This document shows positions 23,210 to 26,178 of a stretch of DNA of 64,000 nucleotides, in pieces; the first letter of the stretch is position 1; each line of letters opens with the position of its first letter. A program made the position numbers and the translations under genes. The notes beneath the pieces were generated by a model. The model did not search any database, had not been told where the DNA came from, and worked only from the letters and a program-made list of their open reading frames with translations. This stretch comes from a plasmid: assembly GCF_054482595.1 (NCBI RefSeq), contig NZ_JBTHVH010000001.1. One strand, given 5' to 3'.

Positions 23210-23392
23210 CCCAATGAATCGTGATTTATAGAGCGATTTAGCTGTTAGCCGCGACAGGCGCGGCGGTAAGCATGGCTGGGCCTAGTCCTCCCAGACAAAC
23301 CACCGAGTTGCCAGGTTGACCATGCGCCTAAGTGGCAACGCCGAAGTGCGTTACGAGCTTCCAGTTTGCCCATCTTCGGGTGGGCGTTTTTT
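23210..23392 (+). ncRNA. candidate C1-controlled structured RNA ending in a strong terminator
   Basis: Hairpins GCCGCG/CGCGGC (23249-23265), CTGGG/CCCAG (23274-23294), GTTGCCA/TGGCAAC (23308-23338). Terminator GCCCATC-TTCG-GGTGGGC plus T6 at 23368-23392. No credible ORF. Confidence 0.45.
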
Positions 23393-23573
23393 CAGGGTTT
23401 TCGTCATGGTTAGCGACTTTGCGGCGGTTTAGAAACTGACCATTAAAGTAAATGCAAACGATGATCTGATGATGGTAGCGGCCTAAGAAACCAGATGCCA
23501 CGGGGTATGAGTCGTCCCCCGTCAAAAAAATCGACCGCAGAGTGTCCCCGTCTGTGTATTAGGGAACGGGGAG

Positions 23574-23656
23574 GCACAACAGGTAAGGGCGCTGGTGTGA
23601 TTAACCAGATGAACGAGAAGGGGCCATCTGTTGGTCAGCGTCCTTTCCTGTTGCGT
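23574..23656 (+). ncRNA. structured hairpin unit A of a four-member family
   Basis: Arms 23578-23594 and 23636-23652 pair over 17 bp (one mismatch, one G-T). Shares the base ACAGGTAAG/CTTTCC-GTT with units B and D. Confidence 0.45.
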
Positions 23657-23858
23657 TTTCTTTTCAGCGTAACAGCGGTGCTTAACAGCACTTTGGGTAC
23701 AGTTCCACGAATTTACGGGTATATCCCGTCATGCTGAAGGCGCTAATCACGCTGGAAGCCAGGGTTGTGCATCCCCTGTTACCGAATTGCAGCCAGGGCG
23801 CGGTGCGCCGAAAAGCATACGGAGGTGGAAGCCCTCGCCGGAGACGTACCCGGCAAGT

Positions 23859-23934
23859 GATGGTGTAGCTCAGCGGTTAGAGCGGTTGACTGTTAATCAA
23901 CGGGTCGATGGTTCAAATCCATCCACCATCGCCA
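23859..23934 (+). tRNA. trnA: tRNA-Asn (GTT)
   Basis: Manual cloverleaf: acceptor GATGGTG/CACCATC, anticodon loop CTGTTAA, T-loop GGTTCAAATCC, encoded CCA. Confidence 0.9.
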
Positions 23935-23936
23935 AT

Positions 23937-24012
23937 GCCGGTTTAGCTCAGTTGGTAGAGCGCCTGCCTTGTAAGCAGGATGTCAGCGGTTCGAGTCCGT
24001 TAATCGGCACCA
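23937..24012 (+). tRNA. trnT: tRNA-Thr (TGT)
   Basis: Acceptor GCCGGTT/AATCGGC (one G-T), anticodon loop CTTGTAA, T-loop GGTTCGAGTCC, encoded CCA. Confidence 0.9.
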
Positions 24013-24110
24013 GCACAACAGGTAAGGGTATTTTGCGACGTCGGAGATCGCCGAGCTTGGCAGAGGGTTCGAATCCCTACGAAGTACCCTTACCGTTGTG
24101 ATGAAGTGCA
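24013..24110 (+). ncRNA. hairpin unit B with tRNA-like interior, beginning at the base after the tRNA-Thr CCA (stem starts at 24016)
   Basis: 14-bp stem 24016-24030/24085-24098 with a bulged A. Interior has GCGA-N9-TCGC and a canonical T-arm AGGGTTCGAATCCCT. No D-arm. Confidence 0.5.
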
Positions 24111-24235
24111 GCTCTTTGAAGCAACCAGAAGATAAGCATCTGGCTTCACAACATAAACCGCAGGAACGACCAATAAACGGTAGTCCGTATGGAGAACACC
24201 CCGTTGAGGAAGAGGCCTGGCCGGAACCGTAACCG

Positions 24236-24345
24236 GCACTACAACGTTGAGAACACTGGCGTAACGGGGTCATATCCCAATCTACGAATAAATGTTGCGT
24301 TGCAGCGTGACAACCAGTGTTCTCAACATTGTGGTGAATGCACAG
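24236..24345 (+). ncRNA. hairpin unit C
   Basis: 19-bp stem 24241-24259/24314-24332. Interior motif GTAACGGGGTCATATCCCAATCTAC. 3' tail GGTGAATGC. Confidence 0.45.
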
Positions 24346-24510
24346 GCTGATGTGCCGCAACTACAGTAGTGCGCGCTTTGCGGGGCTTGCTACAACCCTG
24401 TGTCGGAGTTCAGCACCGACCATCACAGTTTGATTCTCTGGCATGAGCATAACGCTGAAATAAGTCCAGCCTGGTGCGGCCCGATCACCCGCCGTTAGCT
24501 CCACGAAACG

Positions 24511-24605
24511 GAGCACGTAACAGGTAAGAGCATTCTCCTGTAACGGGTTCATATCCCAATCTACAGGTCCACCAAGAATGCTCTTTCCGTTGCGGTGAAT
24601 GCGGC
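24511..24605 (+). ncRNA. hairpin unit D
   Basis: Stem 24518-24536/24575-24592. The interior GTAACGGGTTCATATCCCAATCTAC is near-identical to unit C. 3' tail GGTGAATGC. Confidence 0.45.
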
Positions 24606-24744
24606 TAAGCACACGCGGGGAAATGGTTATATCAGTCCATTCATTTCTCCTTGTTTCCCCGTCCACGGTGGATAACCAGCCAAAGGACACCGGGAGGCAC
24701 CCGGCACCGCAGCTTTTTTATTCGTTAAATAATGGAGTGAGAGG

Positions 24745-24981
24745 ATGCAGAACAATCCGAACAAATGTCGAACGCTATGGGTGCGGTTATATATTTATGC
24801 CGTCCTCTGTTTGATTGTGTCACTGGTTCTGTATGTTTGGCTTTTGCCAAATATGATCTCATCTAACAGCACAATACTTGTATTGTTGGGAGTCCTTCTC
24901 GCGCTCATTTACCCGGCTTTCGCAGTAGTCTTTTTTCGTGAAAAAACCAGGAAATTAATTAATGAAAAAAACGTTGATTAG
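24745..24981 (+). CDS. small two-TM membrane protein
   Basis: 78 aa with two hydrophobic helices. Overlaps the next gene by 20 nt. Confidence 0.6.
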   Translation: MQNNPNKCRTLWVRLYIYAVLCLIVSLVLYVWLLPNMISSNSTILVLLGVLLALIYPAFAVVFFREKTRKLINEKNVD

Positions 24982-25789
24982 TGCAGCGATTATTTTGGGT
25001 TCTTTATGTCTGACCGGATGCGATCGGGTAGAGCCAGGTAACGTAGGGATCAAAGTAAATAAGCTGGGGGATGATAAAGGTATCGGTGAAGTAGTTGGCG
25101 TTGGTCGCTACTGGACAGGCTTGAATACTGAAGTTTATATCTTCCCGACCTTTAAGCAAATGAAGACATACGATGAGCCGTTCAGCTTCCAGATGAGCGA
25201 CGGAACAACCATTGGTTACCACATCGGCGTAGCCTACAAGGTTGATCCAGCAAAAGTCACAACGGTATTTCAGACCTATCGCAAAGGTGTAGATGATATT
25301 ACTGATACCGATCTACGCCAGAAGGTTGCAGATGCTCTGAACCGGTTAGCCAGCAAAATGACCACCGACAAATTTATCGACGGTGGCAAATCTGAATTGC
25401 TTGATGCAGCCCTTAAAGACATTCAGGAAGAAATGACGCCAATCGGCATTCAGGTGATGAGCCTCTCTTATGTAGGTAAGCCAGAATACCCGCCAACAGT
25501 TATTGACAGTATTAACGCCAAAGTCACGGCAAACCAAAAAACCCTGCAACGCGAGCAAGAGGTCAAACAACGTGAAGCAGAGGCCAACATGCTGCGCGCG
25601 GAAGCTGCCGGACAGGCTGATGCTATTCGCACAAAAGCCCAGGCCGAAGCTGATGCCATTCGTTTACGTGGTGAAGCTCTGCGCCAGAACCCCGGTGTTA
25701 TGGAGTTGGAAGCGATCAACAAATGGAACGGTACATTACCGCAGTATATGACCAGTAATACCGCTGTTCCGTTTGTTCCGGTGAAATAA
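24962..25789 (+). CDS. SPFH/band-7 family lipoprotein
   Basis: Lipobox CLTGC. SPFH-like core. C-terminal A/E/Q/R coiled coil. Confidence 0.75.
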   Translation: MKKTLISAAIILGSLCLTGCDRVEPGNVGIKVNKLGDDKGIGEVVGVGRYWTGLNTEVYIFPTFKQMKTYDEPFSFQMSDGTTIGYHIGVAYKVDPAKVTTVFQTYRKGVDDITDTDLRQKVADALNRLASKMTTDKFIDGGKSELLDAALKDIQEEMTPIGIQVMSLSYVGKPEYPPTVIDSINAKVTANQKTLQREQEVKQREAEANMLRAEAAGQADAIRTKAQAEADAIRLRGEALRQNPGVMELEAINKWNGTLPQYMTSNTAVPFVPVK

Positions 25790-25816
25790 AAGCGTAAGCA
25801 AAATTGGCAGTAATCC

Positions 25817-25892
25817 GGCCCTTTAGCTCAGTGGTTAGAGCTGGCGACTCATAATCGCACGGTCACCGGTTCAAGTCCGGTAGGGGCCACCA
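25817..25892 (+). tRNA. tRNA with CAT anticodon (Met or lysidine-type Ile; the P1 counterpart is annotated trnI)
   Basis: Acceptor GGCCCTT/AGGGGCC, anticodon loop CTCATAA, T-loop GGTTCAAGTCC, CCA. Confidence 0.85.
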
Positions 25893-26178
25893 TATTTGGT
25901 TGTAACACGGCGTCTGGCACATGCGTCGTTAGCGGTCTGGTGACGTTAAAAGGGGGGAACCTTGCCCCTAGCTCAGGCAACGAACCAGGTAGCCGGAATG
26001 TGCAAGCCACCGTTTGTTGTTTCTCGGGTAAAGGGATTCACCATCCTGGCGATTCGGTGTGACAGCCGGGAAAAGTCCGGCGCATTAATCCTGATTTTCT
26101 GGTGATGACTCATATCGTTAGGAGTGATTTGAGTATGCCGATTATATCTGACATTCAGCACGCCTGGGTGGAGTGCTA

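Follow-up and report, generated by a model that had tools for sequence, protein, structure and literature searches.

The stretch analysed here, called the window below, comprises 64,000 nucleotides of a plasmid (contig NZ_JBTHVH010000001.1 of RefSeq assembly GCF_054482595.1) and carries a P1-type phage: 23400-26000 is 100% identical to Punavirus P1 MH422554 and ~99% identical to reference P1 over the shared parts. The homologous region of reference P1 follows the C1-controlled promoters P1ban and P2ban, and is annotated with a 'dicF-like region', tRNA-Asn, tRNA-Thr, the minus-strand open reading frames (ORFs) plp and upl, tciABC, tRNA-Ile(CAT) and ban. In the window a gene with an SPFH domain stands in place of tciABC. 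The ban leader is ~2.9 kb long and mostly untranslated. A part of ~1.4 kb, from the C1-controlled promoter region of reference P1 to the first gene downstream, has no coding function and is densely structured as RNA. The subject of this work is unit B (24013-24110, + strand), a structured element of this leader located next to tRNA-Thr. It proved to be a conserved, covarying + strand RNA with a tRNA-like, almost invariant interior.

The immediate upstream neighbour of unit B is tRNA-Thr(TGT) (23937-24012, + strand, encoded CCA included), which was found by ARAGORN and scored 72.9 bits with the Rfam tRNA model. Two other tRNAs of the leader, tRNA-Asn (23859-23934) and tRNA-Met/Ile(CAT) (25817-25892), were identified by both ARAGORN and Rfam. 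A preliminary description, made from the letters of the window, had placed the start of a hairpin unit at the base after the CCA of tRNA-Thr. This is borne out by the ARAGORN placement, in which tRNA-Thr ends at 24012 and 24013 is the next base. The same description let the stem start 3 nt further on, which needs a minor correction: the helix begins 1 nt after the CCA.

The fold of 24013-24110 has a minimum free energy of -41.6 kcal/mol, against a mean of -25.6 kcal/mol for shuffled sequences (z = -4.76; none of 200 shuffles was as stable). When 23937-24112 was folded as one piece, the tRNA-Thr cloverleaf and the hairpin formed side by side. Unit B consists of a long helix, a tRNA-like interior and a 3′ tail, a combination that we call the T-type cassette. 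The helix, or scaffold, comprises ~21 bp (two turns) and closes a 46-nt interior. Its 5′ strand extends from 24014 to 24035 (CACAAC, bulged A24020, GGTAAGGGTATTTTG) and its 3′ strand from 24080 to 24100 (CGAAGTACCCTTACC followed by GTTGTG). In the lower stem 24014-24019 pair with 24095-24100, the bulge A24020 lies 6 bp above the base of the helix, and in the upper stem 24021-24035 pair with 24080-24094. Characteristic features are a conserved A-A-G/C-U-U core and a conserved U.G wobble. The tail GATGAAGTGC (24101-24110) is conserved and forms direct repeat D5; other units have GGTGAATGC in this place.

The interior holds two hairpins with a short stub between them. GCGA-CGTCGGAGA-TCGC with its 9-nt loop, which had been described as an anticodon-arm-like hairpin in an element that lacks a D-arm, is found exactly as given, at 24035-24051. 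The hairpin itself stands; the label appears less apt, and 'no anticodon arm' would be the better wording. Hairpin 1 (24036-24050) has a CGA/UCG stem, or GCGA/UCGC if G24035 and C24051 pair, and the loop CGUCGGAGA. With a loop of the form YGYC-GG-AGA on a stem of 3-4 bp, it seems to us closer to a D-arm than to an anticodon arm. The place of the anticodon arm is occupied by a 3-bp stub, CCG AGCU UGG (CCG/UGG, 24051-24060; columns 52-62 of alignment A1, described below). The perfect T-arm that had been reported is present at 24064-24078, AGGG-UUCGAAU-CCCU (TTCGAAT in the DNA); it is canonical, with the G53-C61 pair and a UUCRANU loop. Besides the three tRNAs, unit B is the only place in the 64-kb window with the motif GGTTCRANTCC; these four occurrences compare with 0.16 expected from shuffles. 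Between the T-arm and the 3′ strand of the helix there is a single nucleotide, A24079, and because of this spacing the T-arm can stack on the long helix. The parts are ordered as in a tRNA body, with the helix 5′ strand first, then the D-arm-like hairpin, whose loop has an invariant GG, the stub, the T-arm and finally the helix 3′ strand. Unit B resembles a tRNA with an over-long, closed acceptor stem and without an anticodon arm.

To assess conservation of the structure, 21 of the 37 distinct T-type units were aligned (alignment A1), and a covariance model, R1, was built from this alignment. The model scores unit B at 102.9 bits. In the long helix two-sided changes were seen in 12 of 21 pairs. 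Of the alignment cells 92.7% were paired, compared with 87.1% in shuffles (none of 500 reached the observed value) and 29-51% when the partners were slid. Hairpin 1 is invariant but for two pyrimidine positions of the loop and the T-arm is invariant altogether; both are conserved also when left free in the search pattern. In the stub, pairing is A-U in 12 units and G-U in three and is lacking in six, and no two-sided change was seen. With R1, T-type units reach 78-120 bits on the + strand, compared with 14-29 bits when the opposite strand is scored. The helix has many G.U pairs, with U.G at one position in 15 of 24 units, and the element is co-oriented with its flanking genes; these two observations point to a + strand RNA.

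Comparison of homologous P1-like loci, which the preliminary description had proposed, revealed two situations. In D6, SJ46 and many P1-like plasmids the element is identical to that of P1. In P7, Ro157c2YLVW and an Escherichia fergusonii IncY plasmid the helix is kept with compensatory changes (arms GGTAAGAGCA/TGCTCTTACC in Ro157c2YLVW) and closes, at the same site, the unrelated interior TTCTCCCTTATGGGGCTTGGCTTAAATGCATCGAG, which has no T-arm. None of the relatives has an intact tRNA at this site. P7-type phages carry the same tRNA-Thr, so the T-type interior is not needed to mature tRNA-Thr; its replacement at the same site identifies it as an accessory, exchangeable part. Of the 872 plasmids that matched, 503 did so over at least 80% of the query, and many others match its 3′ arm and tail only. 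Complete E. coli genomes contain a P1-type copy in 463 of 5426 cases, with 465 of 474 places on plasmids. A scan of species-representative genomes gave only one match and says little about host range.

The T-type interior is found far beyond P1-like plasmids. Enterobacter phage BUCT554, a Uetakevirus podophage, has the same interior with no adjacent tRNA, in a stem that differs by compensatory changes. IMG/VR was scanned with three patterns, each of which left different parts of the interior free. The pattern with free linker, hairpin 5′ strand and loop start matched 118 contigs, that with both stems free 116, and that with both loops free 115. These were essentially the same contigs, with one true variant (UCAC for UCGC, L130), which means that the whole 46-nt interior is conserved and not merely the part imposed by a pattern. 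The tRNA-like interior noted in the preliminary description is therefore real and strongly constrained, being near-invariant across ~115 viral contigs.

The hosts of T-type units are P1-like plasmids, lambdoid prophages and Uetakevirus podophages. In the lambdoid prophages its neighbours are a Q-like antiterminator gene on one side and the holin/endolysin genes on the other, and an intrinsic terminator often stands directly before it (GGGGCTTTTTTGTTTCC|ACAACAGG). The Uetakevirus copies are located in a ~700-nt non-coding stretch that extends from a promoter-like sequence to a terminator. A tRNA near the unit was found in only one of 22 non-P1 loci (L031, ~60 nt downstream), and one other has an unrelated tRNA ~9 kb away. 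The element does not depend on an adjacent tRNA. Some T-type units are chimeric and combine 5′ and 3′ arms that belong to different stem types.

Searches for a tRNA at unit B, suggested earlier in relaxed modes, gave no specific call. ARAGORN did not report a tRNA on unit B at default or -ps (95%) thresholds. At 80%, a 401-nt region yielded only spurious overlapping calls besides the two real tRNAs, one in bacterial and six in mitochondrial (D-armless) mode. Rfam searches of 24013-24110 at E ≤ 10 revealed no match to tRNA (RF00005, gathering score 29 bits), YrlA or another family; the sole matches on unit B were two partial ones to unrelated families, far below threshold (E about 3). Two features of a tRNA are replaced in unit B: instead of an anticodon arm of 5 bp and 7 nt there is the 3-bp stub, and instead of a free-ended 7-bp acceptor there is the closed ~21-bp helix.

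Unit B is one of four units (A-D) in the window with related arms and tails. Unit A (23575-23655, + strand; direct repeats D2/D6) has the same scaffold with a different interior and scores 17.8 bits with R1. Unit C (24237-24336, + strand) has the scaffold variant CACTACAACGTTGAGAACACTGG / CCAGTGTTCTCAACATTGTGGTG, an interior with GTAACGGGGTCATATCCCAATCTAC and inverted repeat I1 (23 nt, 91% complementary). Unit D (24517-24595, + strand) has the same scaffold, an interior with GTAACGGGTTCATATCCCAATCTAC and inverted repeat I3, and scores 35.4 bits. In all, the scaffold was found with at least 14 different interiors. In D6/P7 and in the Klebsiella phage-plasmid pJN2-26 it follows tRNAs. HK629, Sasha and many prophage contigs of IMG/VR have it too, as do the T1-like phage 6991, the N4-like phage IME11 and Klebsiella phage Madison (158 kb). 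Model hits, once folded, supplied the further interior types; an ad hoc hairpin finder, whose boundaries were of mixed quality, was used only to spot fusions of C and D units.

The arms of 24 units with different interiors were aligned separately (alignment A2). Two-sided changes were seen in 13 of 19 pairs, and 93.6% of cells were paired, compared with 80.5% in shuffles (none of 500 reached the observed value). The A-U/G-C core is invariant and the U.G wobble is conserved in this alignment. We conclude that the scaffold is a common helix, and that the units are modular cassettes with swappable interiors. In the interiors of Madison and L107 a canonical T-arm likewise lies directly against the scaffold 3′ strand; that of Madison contains also a 7-bp stem followed by UA and a tRNA-Leu-like D-loop. 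Neither was called as a tRNA, and Madison trimmed to the 7-bp stem plus CCA still gave no call.

Several loci document exchange within the cassettes. Some units are fusions of C-type and D-type across the shared motif GTAACGGGnTCATATCCCAATCTAC; chimeric or fused units were seen in L011 (5251-5354, - strand), L034 (2928-3031, + strand), L016 and L037. In Ro157c2YLVW (L002 2360-2385) the GGGTTCATATCCC hairpin of the unit D interior (window 24540-24564) is precisely deleted and the remainder is kept. The chimeric and fused units are signs of frequent recombination inside conserved interiors. P7 (L005 1954-2038), D6 (L003 2574-2660) and pJN2-26 (L007 1570-1654) encode an 85-87 nt tRNA with the anticodon UGA (Ser), which is absent from the window; its best model was that of selenocysteine-tRNA (46.6 and 44.1 bits, gathering score 47), and a scaffold hairpin stands straight after its CCA.

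Upstream of unit B the same strand contains a tmRNA-like module (23395-23486). A conserved leader (GGTTTTCGTCATGGTTAGCGACTTTGCGG...AAAGTAAAT, ending in TAAAT) is followed by the frame GCA AAC GAT GAT CTG ATG ATG GTA GCG GCC TAA (23454-23486), which encodes ANDDLMMVAA*. The SsrA tag of E. coli is ANDENYALAA. Ten variants of the phage tag were found, all of 10 amino acids and of the form AN[DE]..[AV]A (e.g. ANDEQFLAVA, ANDDVVLMAA and ANEEMYLAVA); synonymous changes are among them, and their stop codon lies in a helix-5-like hairpin. The Rfam model tmRNA_permuted matched the window at 24.1 bits, IME11 at 33.1, Madison at 26.5 and 6991 at 25.2, all below the gathering score of 47, in alignments driven by the resume-codon/tag region. 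Sub-threshold matches to alpha_tmRNA were obtained too; the matches to the two models come from four unrelated phages. BLAST against E. coli ssrA aligned the resume codon and tag start and, weakly, the 3′ end (E 0.17 to 9), and homology beyond the tag module is not established. ARAGORN found no tmRNA in the window.

The tag template and a T-type unit lie on the same strand in 98 of 121 loci. The template is located 592 nt upstream of the unit in P1-like phages and ~143 nt upstream in nine lambdoid loci. Tag-template modules occur also in lambdoid prophages, 6991, IME11 and Madison. T-type units without the template are found in Uetakevirus loci and in L099, L103 and L114; the template without T-type units is found in P7, IME11 and 6991.

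ARAGORN, BLAST with ssrA and a search for a T-arm followed by 7 nt and ACCA did not detect a free tRNA-like domain with G3.U70 and ACCA that could serve the tag template. The last pattern, considered as the tRNA-like domain of the tag, led to compact elements in IME11 and 6991, in which the acceptor pairing was inconsistent across phages; a P2-like long-range pairing, GUUUUCG/CGAAAA, was inconsistent as well. The element of IME11 (L132 1410-1476) has a 7-bp acceptor, UA, a 30-nt body, a canonical T-arm and ACCA, was not called by ARAGORN, and sits in a 2-kb non-coding region upstream of the 'gene 66 / N4 gp49' protein. In 6991 (L133 1351-1378) a T-arm is followed by 7 nt and ACCA. At 24470-24514 of the window and in L089 (9926-9975) a hairpin followed by (C/T)AGCTCCAC-GAAAC-GGAG is similar to the 3′ part of E. 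coli ssrA, its T-arm and acceptor strand, if this is folded back on a GGAG strand. It would be a closed acceptor-like hairpin, with A-U where tmRNA has G3.U70, and the similarity is weak (BLAST E 0.17). We regard the tmRNA link as a lead, not a finding.

Two minus-strand ORFs overlay the hairpin units. The plp-like ORF (23983-24360) has a TTG start, overlaps tRNA-Thr and matches no Pfam or PHROG family; its frame is disrupted by the P7 interior, which is 13 nt shorter. The upl-like ORF (24361-24690) matches only PHROGs of unknown function. Both are probably mis-annotated non-coding RNA. PGAP has no annotation at the site of unit B in the 463 E. coli genomes. In P1vir transcriptome papers upl and trnA are named only as differentially expressed genes.

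Some other parts of the leader deserve mention. The 'dicF-like region' (23302-23392) ends in a strong intrinsic terminator (23367-23386 and a T-run), ~200 nt past the annotated promoter region, so transcription to the tRNAs and ban must read through it or begin elsewhere. Directly after unit B the segment 24101-24156, GATGAAGTGCAGCTCTTTGAAGCAACCAGAAGATAAGCATCTGG, has a homologue in the P22-like phages g341c and epsilon34 (L008 1501-1557), where it lies between PL and the N-like gene, at the position of nutL; the window segment holds the boxA-like sequence GCTCTTTGAAGCAA and may be a nut-like site. Many P1-like phages and plasmids, e.g. vB_EcoM-813R1 and RCS47, have a ~196-bp insertion right after unit B (window ~24105), and a separate set of IMG/VR contigs has GATGAATGCGCAGGCTGATGCGCG after unit B in place of the tail found in the window. 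The stretch 24591-24711 gave a sub-threshold match to the prophage small RNA STnc100 (35.9 bits; 43 bits in P7; gathering score 47). The match starts within the 3′ arm of unit D and has CACCGGGAGGCACCCGGCACCGCAGCTTTTTT at its end, and the 3′ strand of unit D could alternatively pair with CACCGCA. Between tRNA-Met/Ile(CAT) and ban a structured region (25915-26080, GGCACATGCGTCGTTAGCGG...GTAGCCGGAATGTGCAAGCC...) is unannotated and has no Rfam match; it is also present in the non-coding region of the unrelated Uetakevirus BUCT554 (L004 2340-2470).

How could such an element function? We tentatively propose, as a possibility that falls somewhat short of an even chance, that unit B is a modular non-coding RNA cassette, which is released from or stabilised in polycistronic phage transcripts and whose interior mimics the body of a tRNA. 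The cassette would be transcribed within the C1-repressed leader of the ban operon, and in lambdoid phages within the late, Q-dependent leader. The scaffold would be the generic part, a processing or stability element acting as an RNase III-type substrate and/or as a barrier to exonucleases. Its length of ~19-22 bp in all units examined agrees with that of RNase III substrates (about two turns, at least 20 bp of mostly regular helix). The GRUGAAU tail is a possible RNase E site. Through the scaffolds the long untranslated transcript could be divided into stable hairpin RNAs, and in P1 tRNA-Thr would thereby obtain its free 3′ end. The interior would be the specific part: the GG loop of hairpin 1 could dock on the T-loop and form an elbow, and elbow and T-arm would be presented, as mimic or decoy, to a tRNA-reading factor of host or phage. 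Candidates are TrmA/TruB, RNase P, the CCA-adding enzyme, EF-Tu/SmpB or a tRNA-targeting defence protein. A role as tRNA mimic or decoy would be compatible with everything seen. If unit B mimics anything, it is the T-arm/elbow/acceptor side of a tRNA.

Several points weigh against this proposal. Its functional steps are inferences throughout. Hairpin 1, its reading as a D-arm, the T-arm and the stub have no covariation support, being invariant or ambiguous, and for hairpin 1, T-arm and stub the alignment speaks neither for nor against pairing. The arms in A2 were hand-trimmed, which favours pairing. The near-invariance of the interior could in part reflect recent recombinational spread rather than selection, as chimeric units exist. 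Having no anticodon arm, unit B would be a poor decoy for anticodon nucleases. It does not follow the RNase P ruler, a 12-bp stack of T-stem and acceptor that ends at a single-stranded 5′ leader, with RCCA at the 3′ side: the position 12 bp from the T-loop falls inside the perfect helix, the tail GAUGAAGUGC lacks CCA, and there is no 3′ RCCA. A CCA encoded in the 3′ strand of the helix does not fit either.

The same observations can be arranged differently. The hairpin might be nothing but a cis-acting processing or stability signal (RNase III/RNase P site, exonuclease stop, RNase E tail) that defines the 3′ end of tRNA-Thr and segments the transcript, its interior having no function of its own. 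We consider this rather unlikely, although units start 0-3 nt past a tRNA CCA in four cases (Thr in P1, Ser-like in D6/P7, Asn and Ser-like in pJN2-26), other units come after a small hairpin ending in CAC/CCA or after an intrinsic terminator, and the scaffold keeps its length of ~20-22 bp across very different interiors. A neutral 46-nt interior would not stay near-invariant while the surrounding stem diverges, and most T-type copies are not adjacent to a tRNA. A processing signal for the tRNA operon, as considered in the preliminary description, is improbable for the interior, since the element has no tRNA beside it outside P1-like phages and P7-type phages mature the same tRNA-Thr without the T-arm interior; the helix itself could still be punctuation. 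The invariance of the interior also speaks against structural insulation, by which the hairpins together with the boxA/nut-like site would shield the ~2.9-kb ban leader from Rho-dependent termination and decay, the interiors being incidental. Such shielding would suit ~1.4 kb of structured non-coding RNA in front of the first gene, the homology of 24101-24156 to the g341c segment and the position of the lambdoid units in antiterminated late leaders. It would leave unexplained the stand-alone non-coding region of Uetakevirus, from promoter to terminator, and we judge it very unlikely. Between these two we would rank a rearranged phage tmRNA-like system, in which the cassette would be the tRNA-like domain, or a decoy for SmpB/EF-Tu, working with the ANDDLMMVAA* template on the same transcript. 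The template has a tmRNA-type context, sub-threshold tmRNA matches in four unrelated phages, ten length-conserved variants with synonymous changes and the hairpin round the stop codon, and its ~143-nt spacing is fixed in the nine lambdoid loci; L089 has, besides, the ssrA-3′-end-like CAGCTCCAC, which reads TAGCTCCAC in the P1 copy near 24490-24514. Against this, a free acceptor end, G3.U70 and ACCA are all missing from the cassette, and its wobble at the equivalent position is U.G and not G.U. The D-then-T order with the long helix at the acceptor position corresponds neither to the standard nor to the permuted tmRNA topology. Cassette and template each occur without the other, every tmRNA model match is below its gathering score, ARAGORN predicts no tmRNA and the BLAST similarity to ssrA is weak. 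This makes the system quite unlikely. Slightly less doubtful, though still unlikely, is the broader idea that a modular non-coding RNA system of tag template and exchangeable tRNA-like cassettes, its parts deriving from translation rescue and tRNAs, is common to P1 and many other phages of enterobacteria, namely lambdoid, Uetakevirus, T1-like and N4-like ones and Klebsiella phage Madison. It would be either a tmRNA-like device in rearranged form or a decoy, directed at SmpB, EF-Tu or defence proteins that recognise tRNAs, and would manipulate host trans-translation or tRNA surveillance in lytic growth.

Two further explanations were considered. The element could act at the level of DNA, as a palindromic mobile or recombinogenic repeat (MITE-, REP- or attC-like) or as part of the minus-strand ORF plp. 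Chimeric and fused units point to recombination inside shared sequence, interiors are exchanged between otherwise near-identical phages, and plp is annotated over the region in reference P1. All copies are co-oriented with transcription, however, the G.U pairs would be A.C mismatches on the other strand, and the + strand obtains by far the better model scores. Target-site duplications and a nearby recombinase are both absent; for an attC-like site the R′/R″ consensus and an integrase are lacking. The features of the plp-like ORF given above (TTG start, overlap with tRNA-Thr, no protein family, frame broken in P7, no PGAP call) do not support a gene, and we hold a DNA-level element to be highly improbable. 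Decay of a tRNA gene, proposed in the preliminary description, would agree with the perfect T-arm, with the location within a tRNA cluster and, in our own reading, with a faint likeness of the 5′ arm to a tRNA D-region (GGTAAGAGCA compared with GGTAGAGCA). The mark of such decay was to be an ordinary intact tRNA at this site in relatives, the present copy being mutated without regard to structure. No relative has an intact tRNA there, so this explanation fails; the changes in the helix are compensatory, and the interior is kept in unrelated phages that have no tRNA cluster. By that standard the decayed tRNA is refuted, and the residual chance that we would give it is minimal. Unit B is a conserved + strand RNA module; it is neither a tRNA gene nor a tRNA pseudogene, and it is not part of the minus-strand plp ORF.

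Even in P1, a classic model phage, ~1.4 kb of the ban leader is structured non-coding RNA lying under the doubtful minus-strand ORFs plp and upl. What is new here is a covarying RNA with a constrained tRNA-like interior common to unrelated phages, the family of hairpin cassettes to which it belongs, and the tag template on the same transcript. The cassette offers a testable entry into phage-encoded tRNA mimicry in E. coli, and bears on tRNA-targeting anti-phage defence and on phage counter-measures. It also constitutes a new family for Rfam and genome annotators to curate. If the hairpins are only punctuation, they would still represent a new, widespread processing module of phage polycistronic RNAs.

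No family of Rfam 15 matched unit B, and full-text literature searches yielded no description of the element. Several known systems share some of its features. GOLLD and ROOL are likewise unexplained, highly structured phage non-coding RNAs, often located beside tRNAs, but neither gave an Rfam match here, and unit B is modular, built of ~90-nt units and found in enterobacterial hosts. Hairpins cut by RNase III (T7 R sites, the lambda N leader, sib, and the leader-trailer helices of rRNA and pre-10Sa RNA) are comparable as two-turn helices between functional RNAs with conserved internal features. Their internal or terminal loops are small, whereas the scaffold holds a structured interior of 30-110 nt, and its cleavage is only predicted. 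With tmRNA (RF00023, RF01849, RF04321) the unit B transcript would have in common the putative tag template with its helix-5-like hairpin, and unit B itself has in common the T-arm and the D-like loop. Unlike tmRNA, it has no free acceptor stem, G3.U70 or ACCA, and does not enclose the tag template.

The C4 RNA of P1/P7, the CI RNA of P4 and the M3 RNA of phi80 are, like the proposed product of the cassette, small phage RNAs from longer transcripts, and C4 RNA is encoded in the same 64-kb window (Rfam). These RNAs are matured by RNase P through tRNA-like stacking. They end in CCA and act as antisense regulators, whereas unit B lacks a 3′ CCA, is not known to have a target, and was not matched by the Rfam models of the C4 clan. 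YrlA (RF02553), a non-coding RNA, has a tRNA-like module at the end of a long terminal helix, and this module contains both a canonical T-arm and a D-arm-like hairpin. Y RNA genes have been reported in phages; neither P1 nor E. coli K-12 is known to encode the partner protein Ro60/Rsr (TROVE). The order of the modules differs: in the Rfam consensus of YrlA T precedes D, whereas in unit B the D-like hairpin, the stub and the T-arm follow each other with the long helix in acceptor position. The only YrlA match in the region (25.6 bits, gathering score 69) is an artefact that spans the T-arm of tRNA-Asn and the D-arm of tRNA-Thr. The eukaryotic mascRNA/MALAT1 type is also cloverleaf-like, has a stunted anticodon arm, and lies inside a longer transcript beside the end of another RNA. 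There RNase P uses the mimic to make a 3′ end. Unit B differs in being bacterial and phage-borne and in its closed acceptor-like helix of ~21 bp without free ends, and its processing is only predicted. The closest known architectures are thus YrlA, with the opposite order of modules and no model match, and the tRNA mimics of the mascRNA type.

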